54,320 bases of DNA, from positions 1 through 54,320 of the IMG/VR virus record IMGVR_UViG_3300031673_000059. One strand, given 5' to 3'. The notes under the pieces are model-generated. The model was not told where the DNA came from. It ran no database searches and was given only the letters and a program-made list of their open reading frames with translations. Made by a program: the position numbers and the translations under genes. The DNA comes from a virus. This document shows positions 1,788-51,424 of this stretch, one piece after another. Within the stretch, counting starts at the first letter, position 1, and the number at the start of each line of letters is the position of its first letter.

Positions 1788-2003
1788 CTACCGGCAGCGC
1801 CAGGCTGCGCGCATGGTCTCTGGACGAACCATGTCGAAGTTCTCTCTGTGTCGCCTTATGCACGGCTCCCTGCGGAGAACACGGAGGCGGGTCGTCCAAC
1901 CGCCACCACGAGCAACATACGCATCAGTGATGCTGTATATGGCGTTCAGGTAAGCCCCACGAACTGGCGGCTCGGCGACGAAGTCGAACGTCATGATCTG
2001 GTA
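1788..2003 (-). CDS. Possible small protein of 71 aa (MTFDFVAEPPVRGAYLNAIYSITDAYVARGGGW...).
   Basis: This is the non-overlapping 3' part of ORF 1788..2516. It has an internal ATG at 2003, GC3 about 69% and no clear SD. Confidence 0.3.
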   Translation of the reverse strand, partial: YQIMTFDFVAEPPVRGAYLNAIYSITDAYVARGGGWTTRLRVLRREPCIRRHRENFDMVRPETMRAAWRCR

Positions 2004-2094
2004 ATCGACAACGCCGCCCTGCTCATCAATCGATCCACGACCGCTTTGAGAGATACCGACGCTCGAACCTTCGTTGAGCGCAGCCCGGAACCGC

Positions 2095-5000
2095 TCAGCG
2101 GCCTCGCCACGCAGCTCGAAGGCCGACGTCATCGTGCTCGCCCACGATTGGGTTCCGGTGACCGGGTTCTGGTTCGACGCAGCACCAGTAGGTGCCTCGG
2201 GCAGCGCGACTCTTACCTCGTCTGCTGATGTTGTCGAGGTAGAAAAGCATTCCGGCTCGGTTGTCGAGTGGTTGAAGAGGGGGCGGCCAGAAGGGGTTGG
2301 AGAGTCCCTGTCTGACGAGGGGTCCTGCGAACCGGAGGAATGCTGAGTCGCTGCCCCCCTCAGCGACGACTCGGTCCATGTGTCGCTGGTGGTTTTCGAG
2401 GAGCATGCCTGTAAGAGCTCTTGTGAAACTGTCGTCGACTCCTTCGAGGAGGGGGGCCCATTTCTGGGTGTAGCGGTTGACGATGCTCTGAAACTCTGGT
2501 GCCTCAGCAGCGGCACCTCCAGGCCGCTCTTGGAGTAACTCCTGCCTCAACCTCGTCATGGTAGCGAGGATCTCTGATGGTTGAATCGGCGGTGTCGCAG
2601 ACCCAGTTGAGTCCTCGGACGACGCGACCGTCGTCCACACCTCGCTCGGGGGTGCCGTCGTCGATGGTGGCGCAGAAGACGTTGAGTCCGAGTAACTCGG
2701 GTCCGGGAGCGCCGCCGACGATCCGGACCCACTCAGAAAATCCGAGTCACCTCGCTCTCCAGGCTGACCTGGGCCCGAGCCAGCAACGATGTTCACCGGC
2801 TCGGATGATCCTGGAGTCGAAGGCCTCTCCATGCTGGTAGGACTGCCAGTTACCTCCTCGGACGGTGCAGGATCCGAACCCCATCTGCTCGATGGCTCGG
2901 TCCATGACGGATCGTAGGTAGATTCGACCGCTGGTGTTCCGGGGGGCGATTCCGAAGGTTCCCTCGACGATGTGTGTGAGTGGTCTTGGGTTGACCATGA
3001 TGGCCGCCGCTTCTGCTCTTGTGATGTTTGGGCCGTAGAGGGCCCTAACCCAAAAGGGACGTCATCGGGCCCTCCATGCCGCCCGTGGACCGGCCGTAAA
3101 GTCGGGGAGTTCGGGATCGAGCCACCAGGAATCGGCCCGATCCCACCCCTGCCAGTCTCCGCCTCTGAGCGTGTAGGCGTCGATCCCGATGTAGTGCGCG
3201 ACTTCGGGCGAGACTCGCATCCAGTTGGCTGGGTTTCTGACGGTGAGCTCGTAGATTCGTTGGGCCGCCGCCGCGACCCTGGCGATAAAGGGAGGTCACC
3301 TTGCTCTCCAGGCGCACCTGAGTCCGACGTCTCTGACGTCGTTTCCGGCACCTCGCTGCCGTCTGGCGACGAAGCCCTCGTCCTCTCCTCTGAGGACCTT
3401 AGGTCGATCCTCGGCGGTGATTGCGATGTAGGGGGCGTAGATGAACCCGGTGTCAAGGACTGTGTCGCCCTTGTAGCCGAAGAGGAACCCCGTCCTGTCT
3501 CCGTCCTGGGACTGGTCAACATGGATGAGGCGGCCGCCGTCTTGGGATGAGAATGGGGGCTCTGGGTGGACCGTCCACCCAGGCCTGATCCGAAACCCGA
3601 GTCACCTCGCTCTCCAGGCCCCTCGGAGTCCGAGTCCGTGGTCGAGGTCCCAGCCCCAGACTCTGCCGGTGTCGAGGCCTGGGTCGGCGAGTTCGAGCCA
3701 GCAGATCCCCCGGACCCTGATCCGGGGCTGGAAGGGTCCGAGCCGACCGGCGTTGCGTCCTCCGCGTAGGGGCCCAACCCCATCCCGAGGTCGGAGTAAG
3801 CGTCCATGTGCTCGTAGTCAGCGTACCGGTCGAGCAGCTGCCCGGAAGGAGACATGAGACTGTCGCTCAAGGACCCCGAGCTGGTCTCGCCATCCTGGAG
3901 ATCCCTCTGGGGGTCGTCCGACATTCCAACTGATGGACTTGAGGATGTATGGGATACCGTCCTGGTAGAAGATGCCTCCGAGGTAGCAGCGTCCGAGTTC
4001 GCCGAGCTCGATCTCGCTGCATGGGTTGACCCCGAAGGCTCCGTAGGGTCCGAGCTAATGAACCCTGGCTCTCCAGGCTGTCCTGACGCCTCCTCGGTCA
4101 ATGTTGTGGCCCCTGAAGGAGGCGCCTCGCTCCCAATCCCGGGGGGACTCATCCCAGGAGTAGCTTCGGATGAGGAATCGATGATGTTGCATGCGCTCTC
4201 GGACGGAGAGGCCTGCGTAGGGTCCGAGCTAGGCTCTCCAGGCTGGTCGGAGTCCTGCGTCCTGGGCCCCTCCGACTGCTCGTCCGATGTTGCTGACGGG
4301 GAACGGATAGGTCCCGCCGTTGAGATGATATGTAGGAGGGAATCCGTAGTCAGGAACGGGGTTGATGTAGGGTCCGGGCGTTGCTCGCCGTTAGCGATGT
4401 AGCCATTCTCGGGCAGGTCCTCGACCCCTCGAACCCACTGGCACCTGGTCCATTCGAAGACGTTCCCGCAGTTGTCGTGGAGCCCCCAGTTGTTCGGATC
4501 CTTCAGGCCAACTGCCTTGTGCCCGTCCTCAAACTCGCCGCCGAACCAGGCGATCTTCTTTAGGTCCTCATCCGTGTCGCCGTTGGGGTAGCGCGTAGTC
4601 GCTCCGGCCTTAGTCGCGTATTCCCACATCGCCTCAGAGGGGAGCTGAAAGCCGACCCGCTCACCCTTCTCGTTCCAGAGCCAGGCCTGGTAGGCCGCCT
4701 CGACCTCTGCTGAGAACACCAGCGCTTGGTTCTGGACAGGCAGAGGCATGATGTCCGTGTTGACCTGTTGCTCCCACTCTCTCCACGTCAGCGTGAAGGT
4801 CTGATCTGAGTGTGTGAACTTGCAGTTGGTCAACCGTGCAAAGTCCAGCCGGTTGATGAAGTCCTCGACCTCACGGCACCGATCCCAGGAGACGCTCTCA
4901 ACAGGGTGCTCCCCCCACCTGCGCCCATCAGAGTCCTTCAACTCCATGCGGGTCGCAGGCCCGAACGGCGCGTCACCCATGCGGGTGACGTTAAGCCCCT

Positions 5001-5400
5001 CCTCGACCATTTCGGTCGTAGGGAAGTGACTCGGGAACTCACGTGTGACGCGGTACCACTCACGCCCGGTCCACGGGTACTTCGCCATCAGGAATGGCTC
5101 GTCGAAGGTCCGCTTGACCTGTTGCTGGGCCGTCTCATCATCAGGGTCCGCAGTGGGACCCATCATGAACTCACCCGAAGGGATCAGAACGAAGATCATC
5201 CCCGTCGTCTTGTGCTGATACTCAGCCAGGCCTTGGGAGTTGAGCCCGAGACACGAGAAGAGCTCAGTCTCCTCTACGCGCAGTCCGTAGGGGACGTCGT
5301 TTCCGGCCCTGCGGATTCGCGTGATGTAGTCGCCGCGATCGGCCGCGTCGCCTGTAGCCTGCCAACGGCGTTCTGCTGCTCTTAAAGCGGCGTCTGACAT
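2095..5400 (-). CDS. Large 1101-aa protein. N-terminal FGE-sulfatase (SUMF1/EgtB-like) domain of about 340 aa, then a roughly 500-aa Ser/Pro/Thr/Gly/Asp-rich low-complexity tract, then an unknown C-terminal domain of about 240 aa.
   Basis: N-terminal motifs MIFVLIPSGEFMMGP...FDEPFLMAKYPWTGREWYRVT and RYPNGDTDED...NNWGLHDNCGNVFEWTRCQW match the FGE family signature (xIPAGxFxMG ... GLyDMsGNVWEW). RBS AGGAGA lies 5 nt before the ATG at 5400. A single stop-free 3.3-kb frame is extremely unlikely by chance. Confidence 0.8.
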   Translation of the reverse strand: MSDAALRAAERRWQATGDAADRGDYITRIRRAGNDVPYGLRVEETELFSCLGLNSQGLAEYQHKTTGMIFVLIPSGEFMMGPTADPDDETAQQQVKRTFDEPFLMAKYPWTGREWYRVTREFPSHFPTTEMVEEGLNVTRMGDAPFGPATRMELKDSDGRRWGEHPVESVSWDRCREVEDFINRLDFARLTNCKFTHSDQTFTLTWREWEQQVNTDIMPLPVQNQALVFSAEVEAAYQAWLWNEKGERVGFQLPSEAMWEYATKAGATTRYPNGDTDEDLKKIAWFGGEFEDGHKAVGLKDPNNWGLHDNCGNVFEWTRCQWVRGVEDLPENGYIANGEQRPDPTSTPFLTTDSLLHIISTAGPIRSPSATSDEQSEGPRTQDSDQPGEPSSDPTQASPSESACNIIDSSSEATPGMSPPGIGSEAPPSGATTLTEEASGQPGEPGFISSDPTEPSGSTHAARSSSANSDAATSEASSTRTVSHTSSSPSVGMSDDPQRDLQDGETSSGSLSDSLMSPSGQLLDRYADYEHMDAYSDLGMGLGPYAEDATPVGSDPSSPGSGSGGSAGSNSPTQASTPAESGAGTSTTDSDSEGPGERGDSGFGSGLGGRSTQSPHSHPKTAAASSMLTSPRTETGRGSSSATRATQSLTPGSSTPPTSQSPPRIDLRSSEERTRASSPDGSEVPETTSETSDSGAPGEQGDLPLSPGSRRRPNESTSSPSETQPTGCESRPKSRTTSGSTPTRSEAETGRGGIGPIPGGSIPNSPTLRPVHGRHGGPDDVPFGLGPSTAQTSQEQKRRPSWSTQDHSHTSSREPSESPPGTPAVESTYDPSWTEPSSRWGSDPAPSEEVTGSPTSMERPSTPGSSEPVNIVAGSGPGQPGERGDSDFLSGSGSSAALPDPSYSDSTSSAPPSTTAPPSEVWTTVASSEDSTGSATPPIQPSEILATMTRLRQELLQERPGGAAAEAPEFQSIVNRYTQKWAPLLEGVDDSFTRALTGMLLENHQRHMDRVVAEGGSDSAFLRFAGPLVRQGLSNPFWPPPLQPLDNRAGMLFYLDNISRRGKSRAARGTYWCCVEPEPGHRNPIVGEHDDVGLRAAWRGR

Positions 5401-11059: not shown

Positions 11060-11113
11060 CTATCGGAAGGGGCGACCTCAGGCGGCGGTATAATCACTCA
11101 TCCGGGAGTGTTC

Positions 11114-12922
11114 ATGTCTGAAGATATCGCTCGACGCATCGAAACCGTCGAGAGCCTGCTCGGGTTCAATCTGCGCAGCTACCAGAACCAGGCGCTGACC
11201 GCCATCGGTCAAGGAAAGAACGTGATCTTGCACGTTCCGACCGGCGGCGGAAAGACGGTTGCGTTTCAAGGCGCTCCCTACGTGTCCCCCCATGATGGGA
11301 TCACGGTGATCCTCTATCCGCTGAGGGCTCTGGTGAAGGATCAGACTCGTCGCTTCAAGGAGATCGGTCTACCGTCCGTGACGCTATATGGGGAGACTCC
11401 TCCTAAAGACCGTCCGGCTATCTATGAGAGGATCGCCAACGGTAGCGCCAAGATCCTCCTTACGACTCCCGAGTCGTTCGACATGAATCGCCGCCTCCAG
11501 GCGGTACTCACTGAGCGAGGCGTGTCAGTCCTTACGGTTGATGAGGCCCATGCCTACGAGGAGTGGGCCGACGGCTTCAGACCGACATACCGGCGGGCCG
11601 GGCACGTCGCCCAGCGTGTAGGTGTGAAGCAGTTCCTCCTCTGCTCGGCGACCCTGACATCCAAGGGGTTCAAGACGGCTAGGGAGACCATCGGCCAGGA
11701 CAACTGGACCATCGTTCAGGTCCCGCCCATCAGGTCCAATCTCGTATACCGAGATCTGAGTGAGCCCAGCAGTGAGATCCTCTGTCGCGCCGTTCGCGGG
11801 GATGGTCTGGAAGCTCCTGGGATCGTCTTCTTCACGACGGTCAAGTGCCTGAACGAGACAGCCGACTTCATCGAACGGAAGACCAGGCGAAAGGTCCTTC
11901 GCTACAACGGTGGTATGACCGGCAAGGACCGCAGGGAGGCCCAGGATACTTTCATGTCCGGCGACCACTGGATCTTCGCTACCAAAGCGTTCGGCATGGG
12001 CATCGACAAGGACAACATCAGAAACATCATCCACTTCCAGCTACCCAATTCGATTCTCTCATACGCCCAAGAATGCGGAAGATCGGGTCGAGACGGCCAC
12101 GAGTCGACCTGTTTTCTGACCCAGAGCGAGGACGGCAACGCGGCCCAGTTCCTGATCAGCATGAGCGTCCCATCGATCAATCAGGTGCGCAGGGTCTGGA
12201 ACCTCCTTCAGACCCACTCCCTGAACTACGCCGACTGGTTTGATGTTGACTGGCCTGAGATCGCCAGCAGGGCGGATTTCTCGATCCAGCTGGTCCAGGC
12301 CTGTGTGAGCTGGCTGTTTACCGGAAAGATGATCGAGAAGAAGCAGAAGAGGCTCAACTGGAAGTTCACGATTCACGCTGATTCCGATGAGAAGGCCATC
12401 AAGTACAAGAGAAAGACGCCAGAAATCCTCGACATGCTGCGCGCGGAAGCGATGGTCGAGCAGGGACCTTCAACCTTCGAGCTGCGGCCTGAGTTACTGT
12501 CCGACAGTGTGGGCCAGGTGTTCGTCGGCTGGAGGGCGAAGCTTCGGAAGATGGTCGAGCTCGGGATCATCGAGATCGATGAGCCTCCTAAGGCGAAGTC
12601 TCAGTATCGATTCCTCCACAGGAGTTTTCACTTTGCCCAGGGCGAGGAGCAGCTGACTAAGTCTCGCTCAAGGGCGTTCGATCGTCTGGACGACATGCGA
12701 CGGCTGCAGGCCGCCCCTCCTCATCAACGGCGAAATCTCATGGAGGCGGCCATCTCTCTCAAGCTCGGCAACATCGATGGGCTTGAGATCATGGACGGTC
12801 AATACGATGAGCCGGTCGCGCCATCCAAGCCAGCCCAGAAGAAGAAGAAGAGCGAATCCACCGACCCGTTCAAGTTCGATGGGGACGGCGATGACGACGA
12901 CCCGTTCGTCATTCCCTTCTAG
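11114..12922 (+). CDS. RecQ-family SF2 DNA helicase.
   Basis: Motif I VPTGGGKT, motif II VDEAH, motif VI QECGRSGRDG and an acidic C-terminal tail. GGGAG lies 5 nt upstream of the ATG at 11114. The ORF track starts at the GTG at 11108. Confidence 0.8.
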   Translation: MSEDIARRIETVESLLGFNLRSYQNQALTAIGQGKNVILHVPTGGGKTVAFQGAPYVSPHDGITVILYPLRALVKDQTRRFKEIGLPSVTLYGETPPKDRPAIYERIANGSAKILLTTPESFDMNRRLQAVLTERGVSVLTVDEAHAYEEWADGFRPTYRRAGHVAQRVGVKQFLLCSATLTSKGFKTARETIGQDNWTIVQVPPIRSNLVYRDLSEPSSEILCRAVRGDGLEAPGIVFFTTVKCLNETADFIERKTRRKVLRYNGGMTGKDRREAQDTFMSGDHWIFATKAFGMGIDKDNIRNIIHFQLPNSILSYAQECGRSGRDGHESTCFLTQSEDGNAAQFLISMSVPSINQVRRVWNLLQTHSLNYADWFDVDWPEIASRADFSIQLVQACVSWLFTGKMIEKKQKRLNWKFTIHADSDEKAIKYKRKTPEILDMLRAEAMVEQGPSTFELRPELLSDSVGQVFVGWRAKLRKMVELGIIEIDEPPKAKSQYRFLHRSFHFAQGEEQLTKSRSRAFDRLDDMRRLQAAPPHQRRNLMEAAISLKLGNIDGLEIMDGQYDEPVAPSKPAQKKKKSESTDPFKFDGDGDDDDPFVIPF

Positions 12923-29858: not shown

Positions 29859-30370
29859 ACTCCGTGGAGCAGCGCCGACCGTAGGTCATGATGGACCGGA
29901 ATCGGACCAGCTGGCGCCGGAAGGCCCAACGCGGTTGCGAACTTGTCCACACCGTTGGCGATGGATGCTAGGTAGCGGTTCTTGGGCGAACCCTCTGGGA
30001 AGCCCAGGACTACGCGATCGGGCCAAGTGGCGGCCATGAACCCGAACTCGACGTTGGTGGTGAACGCCGGCATATTCTCCAGGTTACGGGGCACCCAGAA
30101 GAGAACTCGCTCGGCACGACCTAGCGCCTGCCACTCCCACTCGACCTGGCGTTGGTAGTCGCCACACCAGCCCCAGTTCTCGTCTTGAGGGACGAAGACG
30201 TAGCCGGTGTAGCCGGCCTCCTCCAAGATCTCCAACGCTTCCTGCCGCCACCCCTGAACGTTCTTGTCGCGCGGTGTTGGTCCCGCCAGGAAGATGCTGT
30301 TGGGTGTGACCCCCCTCCGCGTCGGAGGCAGGTCTTGGGGAACGAAGACGACCTTAGGACCGATGGACAC
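29855..30370 (-). CDS. Nucleoside 2-deoxyribosyltransferase-like protein.
   Basis: IFLAGPTPR...WRQEALEILEEAGYTGYVFVPQ resembles the Nuc_deoxyrib_tr-like pattern. Confidence 0.45.
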   Translation of the reverse strand: MSIGPKVVFVPQDLPPTRRGVTPNSIFLAGPTPRDKNVQGWRQEALEILEEAGYTGYVFVPQDENWGWCGDYQRQVEWEWQALGRAERVLFWVPRNLENMPAFTTNVEFGFMAATWPDRVVLGFPEGSPKNRYLASIANGVDKFATALGLPAPAGPIPVHHDLRSALLHGV

Positions 30371-30611
30371 GAGCTCTCTCCTCCTCGATTGTCTGAGCCA
30401 CGTAGGCGCAGACCTCGACGATGCTGAGGATTGAATCAGACTCCTTGAGCTTGTCGCCGAATTCAGTCCTGGTCTTCACACCGGCCGCCTCGACCATGTG
30501 GGAAGGGAGGTGTTCTGCAAGCCCGTCGAGCATACGCCCTCGGATCTGAGCGAATCGCAGCTGGTCAGCGTCGCTGAGTGGGTCCGGCACTGGCTTTCTC
30601 CTCGTGGTCAA
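30354..30611 (-). CDS. Hypothetical protein, tandem paralog A.
   Basis: RFAQIRGRMLDGLAEHLP aligns with RFIAIKNRMIRDLATHLP in the neighbouring gene. Confidence 0.5.
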   Translation of the reverse strand: MTTRRKPVPDPLSDADQLRFAQIRGRMLDGLAEHLPSHMVEAAGVKTRTEFGDKLKESDSILSIVEVCAYVAQTIEEERARVHRS

Positions 30612-30828
30612 TGCAGACCGCAGTCCACGCTGTGATGTCGATGATCGCCGTCAACGTCTCGGATGTGTAGATGTGCTTGTGAAATTCGGCGCGATCCTTT
30701 GAGCCGGAGTTAGACAGCCAGTCGTCCGGCAGATGTGTGGCGAGGTCGCGGATCATCCGGTTCTTGATTGCGATAAACCTAGCATTCACGATCGGGTCTT
30801 GGGGGCTTGGACCGGTCGGCTCGTTCAT
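30565..30828 (-). CDS. Hypothetical protein, tandem paralog B.
   Basis: Paralog of 30354..30611. Confidence 0.5.
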   Translation of the reverse strand: MNEPTGPSPQDPIVNARFIAIKNRMIRDLATHLPDDWLSNSGSKDRAEFHKHIYTSETLTAIIDITAWTAVCIDHEEKASAGPTQRR

Positions 30829-30918
30829 ACAACTCCTCCGAGTACCACAGGGTAAATCAAATCCTTCCTCCGTGGCAGCAACGCGGTTAAAAACGACACG
30901 GTGACTAAGGCCGGTGCG

Positions 30919-31196: not shown

Positions 31197-31505
31197 ATGT
31201 CCACCGAGACGATCACCGAAACCGATACGACCACCAGGCTCATCCCGCCCTGGCACGTGATACTCCTCAACGACGACGACCACAGCTTCGAGTATGTCAT
31301 CGCCATGCTCTACGCGGTCTTCGGGTTTCCCCCTACCAAGGGGTTTAAGCACGCCGAGGAGGTCGACGCGACCGGTCGGACCATCTTGATTACTACCAGT
31401 CGTGAGCACGCCGAGCTGAAGCAGGAACAGTGTCACGCCTTCGGCCCCGACCCCCTAGTCCCCAGGTGCAAGGGATCCATGACCTGCATCATTGAGCCAG
31501 CATGA
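31197..31505 (+). CDS. clpS: ATP-dependent Clp protease adaptor ClpS.
   Basis: PPWHVILLNDDDHSFEYVIAMLYAVFGF...EVDATGRTILITTSREHAELKQEQ matches the ClpS core. GGAGGTAGAAC-N5-ATG. Confidence 0.8.
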   Translation: MSTETITETDTTTRLIPPWHVILLNDDDHSFEYVIAMLYAVFGFPPTKGFKHAEEVDATGRTILITTSREHAELKQEQCHAFGPDPLVPRCKGSMTCIIEPA

Positions 31506-31985: not shown

Positions 31986-32488
31986 TGGGAATGAGCTACA
32001 GGACCTACGTGGGGCCCTATCTCTGGTGCAGTGTTCGGACCCGACCGGCGACAAAGGAGATCAGGCTCTGCGCGCGGTCGGAGTGCCGGTTCTTCCGAGA
32101 GAGCAGTCCCATGCCCAGCGACAGCAACTTCTGCCCCCAATGCGGCACACCGGCCGTAGACAAGATCGTCGAGGTCGAGGGACAGGTCGAAGAGATCCTC
32201 AGCAGCTGCGATCTCATGGAGGCCACCAACGAGAATCTAGTTCCGGTCAACAACAACTACGCGGACGCCGGGGTCCACCTGTTCGTCTCGAACCTCGCCA
32301 AGGCTCCGGGCCTTCGACTGGAGAGGGGAGGAGATCTCGGCGAGATCATGCAGTATGACGGTGTGATCATTGATCAAGAGCTCACGGCCTTCAGGGAGCG
32401 GCACGCCGATGATCTGGAGATCGTCTACGAGCACTACGGCGAGGATCGTGTTGAGGTCCGGTGGGGCGTGTTGGCCTCTTACGGGTGA
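31985..32488 (+). CDS. Hypothetical protein with a zinc ribbon.
   Basis: MGMSYRTY...CARSECRFF...CPQCG. TGATG overlap with the upstream gene. Confidence 0.5.
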   Translation: MGMSYRTYVGPYLWCSVRTRPATKEIRLCARSECRFFRESSPMPSDSNFCPQCGTPAVDKIVEVEGQVEEILSSCDLMEATNENLVPVNNNYADAGVHLFVSNLAKAPGLRLERGGDLGEIMQYDGVIIDQELTAFRERHADDLEIVYEHYGEDRVEVRWGVLASYG

Positions 32489-32808
32489 AAAAGACGAAGA
32501 TCGTGAACTGTCTACGCGAAGAGTTCGATGTGTATATCGGACGAGCGGGCAAGGGTCACGACGGAACCTTCGGTAATCCGTTCAGGCGCGGCCCGGACGA
32601 CCCCCCAGGCTCGACGCTCATCAAGTTCGAGGAGTATTTCCTCAAGCGCGTCGAGGAGGACCAGGAGTTCCGAGAGAAGGTTCTCGCCCTAAAGGGTAAG
32701 AGGTTAGGATGCTTCTGTCCGCCTAAGAGGGCGTGCCACGGTCGCACCTATGTCAGGTGGCTGGACGGCGAACCCGAGCCAAAGGCGGAGCAGCTGGAGT
32801 TCTTCTGA
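32485..32808 (+). CDS. DUF4326 family protein.
   Basis: KIVNCLREEFDVYIGRAGKGHDGTFGNPF...LKGKRLGCFCPPKRACHG. The GTG start overlaps the upstream TGA. Confidence 0.65.
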   Translation: MKKTKIVNCLREEFDVYIGRAGKGHDGTFGNPFRRGPDDPPGSTLIKFEEYFLKRVEEDQEFREKVLALKGKRLGCFCPPKRACHGRTYVRWLDGEPEPKAEQLEFF

Positions 32809-33146: not shown

Positions 33147-33485
33147 ATGAGAGAGCCCCCGTACGACAAGATCGAGCTGATAGACCTCAAGCCGTGCCCG
33201 TTTTGCGGTCATACGCAGCGGGGAGTGGAGCCGAACACTAGGGTCCGGATCATGTTCGTCGGTATGGCCGTCTACGTACAGTGTGGGCGCTGTCGTGCGA
33301 TAGGGTCTAGTGTAGGGATACCGGGCCACATTGATGAGCTTGGTGCGTTTATGGATATGGTTGCCGACGTAGACATCTTCGGCCTCCCGTCAAACCCTCG
33401 GGCATTCAACGACTGTGAACTCGATCTCTGGATGTCGCAGCTCGCCGCCAAGTTCTGGAACAACCGAAAGCCCCAGCGAGCGTGA
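33147..33485 (+). CDS. Lar-like restriction-alleviation / zinc-ribbon protein.
   Basis: LKPCPFCGHTQ...VQCGRCRAIG. CCGGGTAGAAC-N5-ATG. Confidence 0.5.
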   Translation: MREPPYDKIELIDLKPCPFCGHTQRGVEPNTRVRIMFVGMAVYVQCGRCRAIGSSVGIPGHIDELGAFMDMVADVDIFGLPSNPRAFNDCELDLWMSQLAAKFWNNRKPQRA

Positions 33486-33703
33486 TGGACCACCACGCAC
33501 TGCTCTATTCCCACGCTGTCGTCCAGGCCGCCCGGGTCGGTCTGCCTCTGCACTGGGAGGAAGACATCATGACCTTCACCGCCCCGGGGCATGACGACTG
33601 GATCATCGGTTGGTGCCCCAACACCTTCAATCAGCTGCGGATCAAGGTGATGAGGTTTCACCAACCTGAGGACGCCTACCCGGACATCAAGCGGGAGTGT
33701 TGA
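33482..33703 (+). CDS. Hypothetical protein.
   Basis: 73-aa ORF. It is followed in frame by a 46-codon protein-like extension after the TGA (see findings). Confidence 0.5.
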   Translation: MMDHHALLYSHAVVQAARVGLPLHWEEDIMTFTAPGHDDWIIGWCPNTFNQLRIKVMRFHQPEDAYPDIKREC

Positions 33704-33840
33704 ACCTACGACTGGGAGGTGGGCGCCAGGCTGGTTGCCCAACTGATCGCGTCCAAGGACCCACTAGGGCTGGTCGAGTCGTGGGAGACGCCGGACAACT
33801 GCGAGCTGCCAGGATATGGCCGGGTGCGGATCGACAACGT

Positions 33841-34806
33841 CTAGTAGGGCGTTCCGGCCAACGTGATCAGAGATGCGAACTCCGGCCTCACGAGTGTGAT
33901 TTTGTGCCGGGTGCGGATCGCGCGCCGAAGAGTCTTGTCGGCCGGATCTACGAAGTTCGGTGTGATCTCGACCATGGTGTAAGGACTGTAGATGACGCAC
34001 GTATCCATTACGCTGTCGTCTGCCTGATACCAGGCCAGCAGCTTCCCTACGGGGAAGAGGGGATCCAGGTAGACGCCCCTGCCGTCAACCTCGCCGATTT
34101 TGGCGATGCCGTCTGCCTCTTGGACGTCAAAGCCAAGCTGGGCCAGCATCGCCGCGTTGCCAATGACCCTGTTTGCCGGGTTCCGCTGAGACCCCCGATG
34201 GACGATGTGGGCCGCCCTGTCCAGAGCTTCTTTGAGATCACCGCCGGCGGCCAACTCGATCTTGTTGTTGTCCAGGACGCCGTTCAGGATCGTTCCTACG
34301 ATCTCCCGAGCCACCTCGGTCAGGAGTGCGTCGATGTTCAGAGCCCCCTCTTCGTTGACGTCGGTGTGTGCCTTGCAGCGCCTCGACTCCGCTCGGATCT
34401 CTTGAGGGATGATGTCCAGCACGACGGAAGGCACCTTGACCTTCCTCTCGACGCCGTCTTGAATCAGGGTCGCCTCCTCCATCTCCCCGAAGCGCGGCTT
34501 GTAGTAGTAGACGATCCCGATCGGCCCAGTCATCGGCTGCACCGCGCAGAGGTCCGGGAGCACGTGGGTCCGGACCGAGGCCTTGAGGTTATCGAAGAGA
34601 TCCTCCGTCCACGAGCCGAGGACCAATGCCCGGGTCTCCTCGACGAGACGCTGAAGGTGTCTGCTCTGGTTCTCGCAGACCATGGCAGCGATGTTCGACC
34701 TGTAGCCGTCCTCTAGGCCCCACTTGGTGCGGAGCTTCTCTAGATAGCTCTCGTCCGGCATACCATCAAGCTGAGTCATAGTTCCTCCTGATGCGGAGGG
34801 TACCAC
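33841..34806 (-). CDS. T4 gp24-like capsid vertex protein (paralog of 34825..35778).
   Basis: KLRTKWGL...AMVCENQ, VQPMTGPIGIV, NPANRVIGNAAMLAQLG and YLDPLFP...VIYSPY match conserved T4 gp23/gp24 blocks (KW..L.G...A.I..FENQ; CGVQPM..P.G; N.I..S.N....L; Y.D....YYAPY). Confidence 0.6.
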   Translation of the reverse strand: MVPSASGGTMTQLDGMPDESYLEKLRTKWGLEDGYRSNIAAMVCENQSRHLQRLVEETRALVLGSWTEDLFDNLKASVRTHVLPDLCAVQPMTGPIGIVYYYKPRFGEMEEATLIQDGVERKVKVPSVVLDIIPQEIRAESRRCKAHTDVNEEGALNIDALLTEVAREIVGTILNGVLDNNKIELAAGGDLKEALDRAAHIVHRGSQRNPANRVIGNAAMLAQLGFDVQEADGIAKIGEVDGRGVYLDPLFPVGKLLAWYQADDSVMDTCVIYSPYTMVEITPNFVDPADKTLRRAIRTRHKITLVRPEFASLITLAGTPY

Positions 34807-34824
34807 AACTACATCAGATTTACA

Positions 34825-35778
34825 TCAGACAATCTGCGCCAACCGCTCCAGGACGTTGACCTTAACCACCTGGATGTGGCTCGGATGGGCCACATGGATG
34901 TTGTGGTTCAGGTAGATCGCGAAGTTGTGGCGGCCGTCCATCGGATCGAGCGGGTAGCAGAAGGGCGAGTAGACGACCGGCGTGTCTACGATGCTTGGTC
35001 CCATGTACCAGAGCATTACTTCACCGTCAGGGAACAGCGGATCCAGGTAGACGTGCATCCTCTGCTTGTAGACGCCTACCTTCTTCACCAGGCCGGTATC
35101 AGTCGTGTCCCACTCGTCCGGATCCTCCGGCGAGAAAAGCTCCAACATCTTCTCATTGCCGATCACGTGATTGGCCGGGCCCCGCATGCAGCGCTTGTGG
35201 ACCATCTGCGAGGCGCGAAGGATATCAGTGTCGAACGCGGTGTAGGTCGACTCCAACACATTGCCGGCGGCCGATCCCGCGCCGTGCATGACGCCCAACA
35301 CCTCGCGGATGGACGCCAGCATGACCGAGTCGAACACGCTGTCGATGAGCGCGAAGTTTCCTGGGTAGATCCTGACGCCGAGTCGCCTGATGGAGGCTTG
35401 GACGTTGACCGTCTGCAGGTTCAACGTCATCGTCGGGATCGATGTGCTCCCAGGAGTAGTGGGTCCGGCCGGCGTGGTGATGTTGGTTTGGCCGTAGAAG
35501 CCGATGGTGTCTGATGGCCTCCGTAGGGGCTGGACCGACACCATGTCGATCAGGGGGCAGTGCACCCAGGCCTTCACGAGAGCTCGGTAGAACTTGTCCT
35601 TCCAGTTGTCGCCATAGGTCTCTTCCAGATCATCGGGGATCAGCGATGAGCAAAGGACGTTGGCCTGGTTCTCCAACAGTAGAGCGATGACGCCAGAGCG
35701 CTTGTGATGGCCGGGGAGGTAACCCTCCCACTTCTCGGTCAGAGCCTTGATGTGGTCGTTGTCCAACATGGTGGGCAT
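34825..35778 (-). CDS. T4 gp23-like major capsid protein (short form).
   Basis: LTEKWEGYL...ALLLENQ, VQPLRRPSDTIGFYG, GPANHVIGNEKML and YLDPLFPDGEVMLWY...VVYSPF. Paralog of the adjacent gene. Confidence 0.6.
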   Translation of the reverse strand: MPTMLDNDHIKALTEKWEGYLPGHHKRSGVIALLLENQANVLCSSLIPDDLEETYGDNWKDKFYRALVKAWVHCPLIDMVSVQPLRRPSDTIGFYGQTNITTPAGPTTPGSTSIPTMTLNLQTVNVQASIRRLGVRIYPGNFALIDSVFDSVMLASIREVLGVMHGAGSAAGNVLESTYTAFDTDILRASQMVHKRCMRGPANHVIGNEKMLELFSPEDPDEWDTTDTGLVKKVGVYKQRMHVYLDPLFPDGEVMLWYMGPSIVDTPVVYSPFCYPLDPMDGRHNFAIYLNHNIHVAHPSHIQVVKVNVLERLAQIV

Positions 35779-35803
35779 AGTACCACAAGCCCACCCAAGG
35801 TCA

Positions 35804-36139
35804 TCAGTTGTGTCGATGCTCGGCGATTTTCTCCTTGTTCTCGCTCATGAGCTGCCACTGCCGGCGGTCCGCCTCGTCGTTGCGGTCCAGGCGCGCGTTG
35901 ATAACCGCCCGATCCTCCTTGAGGGCCTGGATCGCCTTCTCGTTCTCACTAAGGCGCGAGTGGATGCCACCGAAGACGTAGCTGATGACCGCGATTGAGC
36001 CAGGAATGAAGACCAGCGCGAGAAGCGCGAGGAGTCCCTTGACCGCCCACTGAGGGATATGTCCAGGGTCCGATTGCTGGACCACAATCGGCGCCGGGGC
36101 CTGAGGATCAAAAGGGGCTGGGTCGTCTGGGGGCATCAC
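35804..36139 (-). CDS. Membrane protein with one TM helix plus a coiled coil (spanin- or holin-like).
   Basis: TM helix LLALLALVFIPGSIAVISYVFGG. Confidence 0.45.
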   Translation of the reverse strand: MMPPDDPAPFDPQAPAPIVVQQSDPGHIPQWAVKGLLALLALVFIPGSIAVISYVFGGIHSRLSENEKAIQALKEDRAVINARLDRNDEADRRQWQLMSENKEKIAEHRHN

Positions 36140-36187
36140 TAACCTCTGAGGACGAGGATAGCAATCAACCCTAGCTAAACGTAGGGT

Positions 36188-36541
36188 TTAGGACTTGATG
36201 TAGCCCGTGCGGCCGCAGTTCTTGCAGGTCTCGTCTCGGGCAATCCAGCCCGTGCCGACGCAGTCCGGGCAGGCCCTTAGGCCCAATAGGCTTACGAGCT
36301 TGTTGCGCGGCGTCGTGCCGACCAGGCCCACGTCCTTGAGCTCTGAGAACGTGGTCAGAATGCCGAGCGCTTGGTGGTGCTTGGAGACGACCTTGCCCAT
36401 GCCGTCCAGCTCGGTCTCGGCCTTGGCCCTCCTCTCCTCATCAGCTGCGAGGTAGGCGGTGACCGCGTCACACATCTTCTCCAGCGCGACCAGCGACTTG
36501 TACATCTGTTGGCGCATTTGGTCTTCAGCTGGAGTGGTCAT
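36188..36541 (-). CDS. Hypothetical protein with a C-terminal zinc ribbon.
   Basis: CPDCVGTG...CKNCGRTG. Confidence 0.5.
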   Translation of the reverse strand: MTTPAEDQMRQQMYKSLVALEKMCDAVTAYLAADEERRAKAETELDGMGKVVSKHHQALGILTTFSELKDVGLVGTTPRNKLVSLLGLRACPDCVGTGWIARDETCKNCGRTGYIKS

Positions 36542-50478: not shown

Positions 50479-51000
50479 ATGACCACACGCAAGCCCTGGA
50501 TAGAAAACGACGCCCTGGCCATCAAACAATTTGAGATCGGCTGGGCATGGCAGCGATTTGTGGGGTGCTTCTTCGCAGCTCACGGCCTGGAAGTGATGCT
50601 CCCCAAGCTCCAGATCAGGGAATCTGTGGATGACATCCCTGATTTTGCTGATGAGTGGGACTTGTCTGTGGCTGGACAGCGGATCGAGGTCAAGTCGCGC
50701 CACTTCGAATTCACCTCCGATCCGGAGTCGTTCCCGTGGGACCGTCCGTTCGTAGACACTTACGGCGGCTACGAGGTCAAGAAGGTCAAACCCATCGCCT
50801 ACGTCTTCGTCAGTCAGAAGACCGGAGCGCTCCTATCCACGCCCGCCAATGAGCAGGAGCGCGACGACTTCTGGGAGACGGTGGTCGCACCGGATCGTAT
50901 GCGAAACATCGCCCAGGAGACGTTTTACGTAACCCCAAGGGCACGCCTCTCACCGATCACACGCCTCGTTGCCCGCCTGAAGGAGATCGGCGACGGATAA
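50479..51000 (+). CDS. Hypothetical protein, possibly a PD-(D/E)xK-like nuclease.
   Basis: DLSVAGQRIEVKS gives a D...E.K pattern. GGGTATAAG lies upstream. Confidence 0.35.
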   Translation: MTTRKPWIENDALAIKQFEIGWAWQRFVGCFFAAHGLEVMLPKLQIRESVDDIPDFADEWDLSVAGQRIEVKSRHFEFTSDPESFPWDRPFVDTYGGYEVKKVKPIAYVFVSQKTGALLSTPANEQERDDFWETVVAPDRMRNIAQETFYVTPRARLSPITRLVARLKEIGDG

Positions 51001-51066: not shown

Positions 51067-51270
51067 ATGAGCGACTACGACGATCTGATCGAGGCCCTCG
51101 ACGACTACCGAGCCAGGAAGGACGAGTGGTGGCGAGATCTCTCGCAGCCGGGTTTCTATGACCCGACCGACTCTCGACGAGACTACGCGGAGAAGGAGAT
51201 CGCGAAGGCGCACGACCACCTCGACAAGGTGTTTAGGGCGCTTGTCCTGAAGGTGATCGAAAAGGCTTAA
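51067..51270 (+). CDS. Hypothetical small acidic protein.
   Basis: CGGTATAAC lies 5 nt upstream of the ATG. Confidence 0.45.
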   Translation: MSDYDDLIEALDDYRARKDEWWRDLSQPGFYDPTDSRRDYAEKEIAKAHDHLDKVFRALVLKVIEKA

Positions 51271-51424
51271 GACGCCGCGAGTCAAATCACTAAAACTTCT
51301 TGCGTATCAGCCCAAAATCGAAGAAACTCTTGACCGCATTAAAGAGCCTCCTGGTCGGTATAAGCGGGGGTTCTTTTTCGGAGTAACACTCCATCGACGA
51401 CCATTCCTAGGAGGAATACCCCCC

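Follow-up and report, generated by a model that had tools for sequence, protein, structure and literature searches.

Two adjacent genes on the minus strand of a viral contig (IMG/VR record IMGVR_UViG_3300031673_000059) encode short relatives of gp23, the major capsid protein of phage T4, and they are surrounded by accessory genes. The window, as it is called here, is the whole contig of 54,320 bp. What do these two genes, A and B, do for the phage? A preliminary description of the locus had read them as the major capsid protein and the vertex protein, and it had offered two explanations for their location, a fragmented morphogenesis module or a minimal gp23-fold pair. The comparisons reported here point instead to additional copies of a capsid gene, in a clade of phages that has a canonical capsid gene elsewhere.

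Sequence and predicted fold of the two proteins

Gene A lies at 33841..34779 and codes for a protein of 312 amino acids (aa), and gene B lies at 34825..35778 and codes for 317 aa, both on the minus strand. The open reading frame (ORF) of A extends to a GTG at 34806 (33841..34806, 321 aa). The true start is likely the ATG at 34779, with a perfect AGGAGG 4 nt before it, and the 312-aa product is also the database version (P0001), for which the longest contig likewise measures 54,320 bp. The two proteins aligned end to end with 27% identity and 44% positives (E=3e-27), which bears out the earlier view of two adjacent minus-strand paralogs. The G+C content at third codon positions (GC3) of both genes, 0.79-0.83, was typical for real genes of the contig.

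We compared both proteins with family profiles. The Pfam profile PF07068 (Gp23) gave 41.6 bits for A and 31.3 bits for B, in both cases above its gathering score of 24.4 bits, and it was the sole Pfam family matched by either protein at E values up to 1. PHROG 138 (major head protein) was also matched by both. A profile of the A/B family searched against the PDB was best on T4 gp23 (E=7e-47), with gp24 at E=1e-10, so that the profile check against gp23 and gp24 supported the family assignment. The conserved gp23-type motif blocks of the preliminary description are present in both proteins, with variants in B. The KW...ENQ block reads KWGLEDGYRSNIAAMVCENQ in A and KWEGYLPGHHKRSGVIALLLENQ in B, VQPM in A is VQPL in B, PANRVIGN is PANHVIGN, and YLDPLFP...YSPY is YLDPLFP...YSPF.

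AlphaFold2 (AF2) modeling yielded a complete HK97 fold for A (predicted local distance difference test score, pLDDT, 90.7; predicted template modeling score, pTM, 0.87) and for B (pLDDT 85.4, pTM 0.85). In both models, 3-4 helices at the N terminus are accompanied by a spine helix, the P and A domains, and an E loop in the form of a long plain hairpin. In a Foldseek search of solved structures, which was conducted with A only, the best matches were T4 gp23 chains (E about 1e-9). Both proteins are about 200 aa shorter than T4 gp23 (521 aa), as had been remarked before, and alignment with T4 and the long relatives showed where the difference lies. A and B are devoid of the E-loop insertion domain, which measures about 105 aa in T4 and about 150 aa in the nearest long relatives, and of smaller parts, namely, part of the N-arm, the A-domain insertion, and the T4 C-terminal insertion. 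T4 residues roughly 137-243, or residues roughly 140-250 in the long clade, correspond in the alignment to a plain hairpin in A and B, formed in the model of A by the strands at 87-129. Judging from the models, "minimal gp23 fold" is a fair description of both proteins.

An HK97 fold without insertion domain and a similar size are also features of encapsulins, the HK97-type nanocompartments of cells, which Foldseek matched at E values of about 1e-6. In contrast with encapsulins, A and B match Gp23 only in Pfam, and their nearest relatives are phage capsid proteins. No encapsulin-type cargo gene was recognized beside A and B, the neighbors being phage accessory genes. Relatives of A and B were absent from 185,579 bacterial and archaeal GTDB genomes, indicating that they are not prophage or cellular genes in species-representative genomes.

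Canonical capsid genes and short paralogs in related phages

Pfam and PHROG scans of the 54-kb contig, and blastx against head proteins, revealed no intact gene for a portal, protease or scaffold, which extends to the whole contig the earlier statement that none flanks the pair. In relatives (loci designated L001 to L157), the situation was the same around the short genes. No head module made of intact genes was present around them in the window, nor was a head module seen in 11 further contexts, and A/B-type short genes occupied the capsid slot after the protease in 0 of the 12.

A scan of JGI metagenomes matched contig Ga0210057_1000066 (203,521 bp) twice, once in an A-type gene (about 174.6 kb) and once in a long capsid gene (about 7.4-8.7 kb). 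We took this contig to be IMG/VR UViG 3300025150_000002, as it has the same size and the same coordinates for the A-type locus. About 48 kb of it are collinear with the window, and its long capsid gene is located some 166 kb from the A ortholog. Thus, this short gene is not directly downstream of the major capsid gene. The second locus on this contig (L143) contains, in this order, a T4_baseplate-like gene, two genes for proteins of 282 aa and 330 aa that are homologous to the genes before the protease in L015 and L032, an S77 protease gene (940 aa, with a LAGLIDADG intein), and a gene for a 477-aa Gp23 protein (200.5 bits, E=7e-59). The latter protein is 69% identical to the L015/L032 capsid proteins and 40-43% identical to A. 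A 42-kb contig, L137, carries both forms: its 322-aa short form is encoded 1.3 kb from the gene for a 477-aa Gp23, on the opposite strand, and the latter gene follows that of a 595-aa S77 protease. A ClpS gene whose product is 54% identical to that of the window lies 2 kb to the other side of the short form.

All the long relatives examined are encoded beside a head protease or in a head module. The order is portal, then S77 protease, then capsid gene in L015 and L032; protease, capsid gene, sheath, and tube in a 401-kb contig; and portal, protease, and capsid gene in the 595-kb genome LR756511. The long forms of Flavobacterium phage immuto and Microcystis phage Mel-JY01 are likewise found by the protease or head module. 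The 203-kb contig was missing from the best 80 of 492 relatives in a scan of IMG/VR with a portal profile. The 475-483-aa Gp23 proteins of this high-GC T4-like clade (L015, L032, L137, L143) are the nearest relatives of A, with 40-43% identity over the shared core and the motifs RL.EETRA and DTG.IYSPY in common. They differ from it by their E-loop insertion of roughly 150 aa, their longer N terminus, and the position of their genes, always after the S77 protease.

Because the 203.5-kb contig has a long Gp23 gene and both forms occur in L137, A and B are most likely extra capsid paralogs and not the main shell protein, as far as gene content and sequence can tell. A fragmented morphogenesis module is unlikely, given that a canonical capsid gene is present in the clade and follows the protease in the 203.5-kb relative. 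The second explanation offered earlier, a minimal gp23-fold pair, holds as a description of the proteins and fails as an account of the main shell.

The relation of the pair to the gp23/gp24 duplication of T4 was addressed with a simple neighbor-joining (NJ) tree based on p-distances, in which gp24 was set as the outgroup. The A-type proteins grouped with 98% bootstrap support and the B-type proteins with 96%, and the two groups were joined at 76%. Together they stood beside a 100%-supported clade of the 475-483-aa capsid proteins, and T4 gp23 fell outside. This grouping indicates that the A/B duplication is lineage specific and independent of the split between T4 gp23 and gp24. A larger tree of 44 sequences was ladder-like, and no claims were drawn from it. 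Identities of A and B were 11-19% to gp24 versus 17-24% to gp23. By sequence comparison, neither protein is a gp24 ortholog, contrary to the assignment of one of them as the vertex protein.

A-type orthologs with 42-55% identity were found at the same syntenic site, between the DHH gene and the DUF4326/ClpS block, in at least five lineages. The contigs concerned measure 358,707 bp (JGI Ga0452204_000004, L004), 182-369 kb (L001, L007), 55.9 kb (L128), and 22 kb (L129), and those of 358,707 bp and 368,865 bp were viewed as 20-kb slices. Divergent single short genes were present at the same site in a 150.8-kb contig (L131) and in contigs of about 50 kb (L132, L157). The syntenic contexts are nine, namely, the window, L004, L001/L007, L128, L129, L131, L132/L157, L138, and the ClpS-linked L137. 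In addition, nonsyntenic pairs were found in accessory neighborhoods in L133, with genes for 361-aa and 350-aa proteins beside an Acb1-like 2H phosphoesterase and DUF4326, and in L134, with a series consisting of Tad6, a 461-aa gene, a 174-aa gene, a 385-aa gene, and ThyX.

B-type orthologs are 26-35% identical (L004, L129), with 29% identity between those of the window and L004, and B is missing from four lineages, L001 and L128 among them. In the window and in L004 the order is B then A, with the second copy upstream. In L129 and L138, A comes first and the second copy is downstream, frameshifted in the case of L129. The conserved copy of the window is thus the downstream gene, A, and the upstream gene, B, is fast-evolving, dispensable, and variably present. 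As the conserved copy lies downstream and the gene order is not fixed, the preservation of the T4 order, gp23 then gp24, that had been claimed for the pair is unsupported; the independence of the duplication from that of T4 also speaks against it. The pairing of a conserved with a divergent copy nevertheless recurs in distant lineages (L133, L134, L138).

B served as the query of an exhaustive phmmer search of 1.84 billion representatives, which returned 121 relatives. By a hand tally of the listing, roughly 60 of them are near-full-length short forms of about 290-360 aa. This result indicates that the short forms make up a large, fast-diverging family, which a word-indexed search had missed. 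Single-protein locus scans of IMG/VR with P0126 or with A gave no match, and 16 diverse short forms, once aligned, proved too dissimilar for such a scan. No close relative of the locus, of the HerA-like gene or of the DHH gene was detected by megablast and tblastn in 50,697 phage records, and by this sequence-based measure the clade has no sequenced cultured member.

Leader sequences and proposed role of the short paralogs

The 5' leader of gene A (34780..34832, minus strand) reads CTGATG-N4-TCTGATG-TAG-TTGTGGTACCCTCC-GCATC-AGGAGG-AACT-ATG, and the leader of gene B (35779..35810, minus strand) contains the nonamer TTGTGGTAC 2 nt before the ATG, with CTGATG ahead of it. The nonamer is found in two copies in the window, one before A and one before B, versus 0.11 expected by chance. 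The A-type leader element precedes the first short gp23 gene in six lineages (window, L001, L004, L128, L129, L132). It is far better conserved than the encoded proteins, and the spacing AGGAGG-N4-ATG is found across lineages. In the leader of A, CCUCC can pair with GGAGG of the Shine-Dalgarno (SD) sequence and UGU with AUG, and the predicted hairpin, with SD and AUG inside the stem, has a minimum free energy of -20.2 kcal/mol (z=-2.6). Counting pairs across lineages, we found 82.9% of the cells paired, versus 34-51% when the partners were slid. RNAalifold returned no consensus structure for seven leaders. No sigma-70-like site was found in the region 33300-36300.

A third copy of the leader, TTTGATTTACC-CTGTGGTAC-TC-GGAGG, with the variant nonamer CTGTGGTAC, is located at 30829-30870 on the minus strand. 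It is followed by a gene for an 87-aa protein (30565..30828, minus strand), with an overlapping gene for an 85-aa paralog downstream (30354..30611, minus strand). This third copy suggests a small regulon common to A, B and the 87-aa gene.

In T4, the ribosome-binding sites of e, soc, 49, and I-TevI are hidden in early read-through transcripts, and translation proceeds from late transcripts whose start lies within the structure (PMC3014915). The leader of A resembles those of the T4 genes in that an upstream strand can pair with SD and AUG, and in that the gene belongs to a co-directional series (PMC3014915). Unlike the T4 leaders, it is supported by conserved pairing potential and not by covariation. 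By analogy with T4, its pairing potential leads us to infer that A and B would be translated late only.

The comparisons show A and B to be intact, selected paralogs of the capsid protein of the clade that lack its insertion and are encoded at a fixed accessory locus. Our best guess on their role, which draws on these T4 analogies, is that A and B are late-made minor shell subunits, of vertex type. Read-through transcripts would fold the leader, masking SD and AUG, and only transcripts starting inside the leader, within TTGTGGTACC, would be translated, as for the four T4 genes. The short proteins would then join the long capsid protein in assembly, as low-copy subunits at vertex-type or other special positions and would represent a functional analog of gp24. 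A-type proteins keep the N-terminal KW..L.G...ENQ block, which is also found in the long capsid proteins and in T4 gp23 lies within the cleaved pro-piece, and they share the RL.EETRA motif with the long proteins. The retention of these features suggests that A may enter the same prohead and be trimmed by the same protease, and B would represent a second variant that evolves faster and can be dispensed with. The recurrence of a conserved and a divergent copy in distant lineages fits a two-subunit, gp24-like role in specialized capsomers. All in all, we give a probability of about one half to A and B being selected capsid paralogs, distinct from the main capsid protein, that are made late as low-copy shell subunits.

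T4 gp24 is the best functional analogy for such a subunit. It is also a duplicate of the major capsid protein, kept beside it and more divergent, and it is dispensable in some backgrounds. It differs from A and B in that it keeps the insertion domain and in that its gene comes right after gene 23 in the head module.

Several observations weigh against this proposal. T4-type capsids can form pentons from the major protein alone, and a vertex paralog is therefore not required. The long Gp23 was seen in the nearest large relatives, and the genome of the window itself is known from 54 kb only. Covariation in the leader is nearly nil, with double changes in 2 pairs. The identity between the window and L001 is 47% for A, compared with 83% for ClpS and 79% for the HerA-like protein, and the copy number of the short genes differs among lineages. 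Finally, neighbors of the counter-defense type (Tad4, Tad6, Acb1-like, Lar, and a weak Macro-domain match, with NADAR elsewhere in the window) fit an accessory role outside the virion. As the short genes do not evolve more slowly than their neighbors, vary in copy number and have such neighbors, we keep a substantial probability for a nonvirion function.

The counter-defense-type genes were identified with Pfam within a few kilobases of short gp23 genes in relatives. They are Tad4 (L004:7739-8113 and L129:905-1279), Tad6 (L134:7648-8076), and the Acb1-like 2H phosphoesterase (L133:12539-13090); L134 also has the weak Macro-domain match.

The strongest alternative, which we consider possible but less probable than the proposal above, is that the short paralogs are nonvirion accessory proteins acting inside the infected cell. 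They might possibly mimic capsids for host sensors, spoil the heads of rival T4-like phages in a dominant-negative fashion, or build the shell of a separate compartment. In its favor, the short genes are always found outside head modules, in accessory regions, with Tad4, Tad6 and the weak Macro match, Acb1-like, Lar, NUDIX, and DUF4326 as neighbors and NADAR elsewhere in the window. Their fast divergence and variable copy number, the frameshifted copy, and the presence on the same contig of small ORFs composed of pieces of the portal, protease and capsid proteins, as well as of a homolog of the vault protein, another shell-former, agree with it too. Nevertheless, the link to counter-defense is one of gene neighborhood only, and a text search of the paper that catalogs 268 anti-defense proteins found none described as capsid-like. 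Binding to capsid sensors usually triggers rather than blocks them, which also counts against a mimic. The full fold, the pro-piece-like N terminus and the EETRA motif in A have been kept, as expected of proteins that enter the prohead, and the leader suggests a block on early read-through translation, a better fit to a late structural gene than to an early counter-defense gene. A specific form of this idea, in which in-cell capsid mimics, possibly with the small head-fragment ORFs, blunt capsid-sensing immunity, sabotage competitors, or form a second HK97-type compartment, appears to us slightly more doubtful still.

Could A and B be the real major capsid and vertex proteins after all, in a genome with scattered head genes? 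We regard this as improbable. Both proteins have complete, confidently modeled HK97 folds, A has a strong ribosome-binding site, the genome has been seen for 54 kb only, and the decayed fragments of long-type capsid, portal and protease genes in the window could mean that the canonical module was lost. Short capsid proteins exist in cultured jumbo phages: PA5oct gp329 and its counterpart in Erwinia phage Hallingskeid are annotated major head proteins of the gp23 family with 391-395 aa, about 125 aa shorter than T4 gp23, and their alignment with the short form P0117 covers about 91% of the latter. However, in those phages (287-366 kb) the capsid genes are found in the canonical order of portal, protease, scaffold, and capsid, a slot in which A and B never occur. 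The PA5oct protein was verified as the major head protein by mass spectrometry. A and B are also shorter (312 and 317 aa), they stand singly as orphans or in pairs amid accessory genes, and a long capsid gene occurs alongside their orthologs. In the collinear 203.5-kb relative, the prohead protease gene and the long Gp23 gene that comes after it are both intact, and L137 has short and long forms. The Pfam scores of 42 and 31 bits compare with 200 for the long capsid protein of the clade, and A is less conserved than its neighbors.

Lastly, that A and B are functionless duplicates heading for decay, as the loss of B-type copies in several lineages, the frameshift in L129 and the very low B-type identities might suggest, is very improbable, because both genes of the window are full length and open, with GC3 of 0.79-0.83 and high-confidence folds, the A-types have stayed at one locus over deep divergence, their leader being better conserved than the coding region, and short forms of full length survive as a large family.

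Duplicated capsid genes with a special role are already known, with T4 gp24 as the textbook case. Here, large uncultured phages (contigs of up to 369 kb) encode a diverse family of stripped-down gp23 proteins outside the head module. If this holds, automatic annotation mislabels such short genes as "major capsid protein," which would distort capsid phylogenies and predictions of capsid size for huge phages. If the short proteins are minor shell subunits, they would represent a second, independent route to specialized capsomers, without the insertion domain that stabilizes T4 heads. A function outside the virion would make them, to our knowledge, the first capsid-fold proteins recruited by a phage for conflict or compartment functions.

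Other features of the contig and its relatives

The genes next to the pair are those listed in the preliminary description, and Pfam and the ORF list agree with it. ClpS (31197..31505), DUF4326 (32461..32808), and Lar (33147..33485) were assigned by Pfam and are on the plus strand, convergent to A and B. An ORF of 111 aa with a hydrophobic, transmembrane-like stretch (35804..36139) is just upstream of B, and an ORF with a CxxC zinc ribbon (36188..36541) is also upstream of B. The rest of the contig consists of replication, repair, and accessory genes, which include those of a HerA-like ATPase, a DEAD helicase, a DNA ligase, a glutamine-synthetase-like protein, a DHH phosphoesterase, NUDIX and NADAR proteins, a nucleoside deoxyribosyltransferase-like protein, and helix-turn-helix (HTH) regulators.

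The left part of the window contains fragments of head genes. Positions 1788-3900 on the minus strand are a jumble of short T4-type head-protein fragments in three reading frames, which match portal residues 52-87, the N-terminal and catalytic parts of the S77 protease, and N-terminal, middle, and C-terminal parts of the capsid protein. Nine segments end in ..R.AWR.R, with a stop within three codons after each. This ending is encoded by a repeated element of 22-42 nt, with copies at 2750, 3299, 3605, 4064, and 4233, among others. The head fragments are closer to the long capsid proteins than to A or B. A search for their donor, in which a concatenate of six head-gene fragments was compared with 5.8 billion proteins, returned nothing at E<=0.01. 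The fragments might represent debris of recombination, tags that target the capsid, or peptides that interfere. A related arrangement was observed in L128, where an ORF of 141 aa (L128:399-824), about 9 kb from the A-type gene, has two copies of a portal fragment (..KKKRLINPTTGRLDIRFNPLAMDE.. and ..KLDLNYNPMENDEDFFIPQR..). In addition, a small ORF among 52 ORFs of the window matched PHROG 15528 "portal protein" (E=4.5e-8); it was not among the 20 ORFs that were rescanned singly.

An ORF of 1101 aa at 2098-5400 (minus strand) encodes an N-terminal FGE-sulfatase domain (Pfam E=2.8e-19) followed by a long stretch rich in Ser, Thr, Pro, and Gly. Toward the C terminus, the product is similar to the pro-piece and N-arm of the long capsid protein of the clade (QKWAPLLEG...LLENHQ), with QKWAPLLEG corresponding to QKWAPVLEG of the capsid protein and 35% identity over 74 aa. 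The same fusion of FGE-sulfatase and capsid parts is found in frame in a relative (L043:11714-13621). GC3 backs the frame of this ORF for parts only, and it may not be real throughout. To go by its sequence, the product may be a capsid-targeted enzyme.

A 173-aa ORF at 50479-51000 (plus strand) matched no family, and a 40%-identical homolog is encoded about 3 kb downstream of a long capsid gene (L011 8117-8608); this ORF may be shared with the long-capsid T4-like clade. It is followed by a homolog of the major vault protein (51257-54319, plus strand; at least 1,021 aa), which is cut by the right end of the contig and has an MVP_shoulder domain (E=1.8e-22), a Vault repeat, and a long C-terminal coiled coil. 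An 867-aa ORF on the minus strand (51434..54037) was discarded as an antisense artifact of the vault-homolog ORF.

Inteins of the LAGLIDADG or HNH type are present in relatives in the DEAD helicase, DnaB helicase, prohead protease, and portal (L043:3237-5264, L043:16908-19535, L143:6970-9792, L015:2224-5733); the helicase of the window (11108..12922) is free of them. At the left end of the window, positions 338-490 contain 22-nt tandem units built on the 14-nt palindrome GGCAGT(GT/AC)ACTGCC, in five copies versus 0.04 expected. The palindrome was tested as a genome-wide motif and was found nowhere else in the window, being local to this cluster. The cluster adjoins HTH replication-initiator-like genes and may represent an origin or an operator array.

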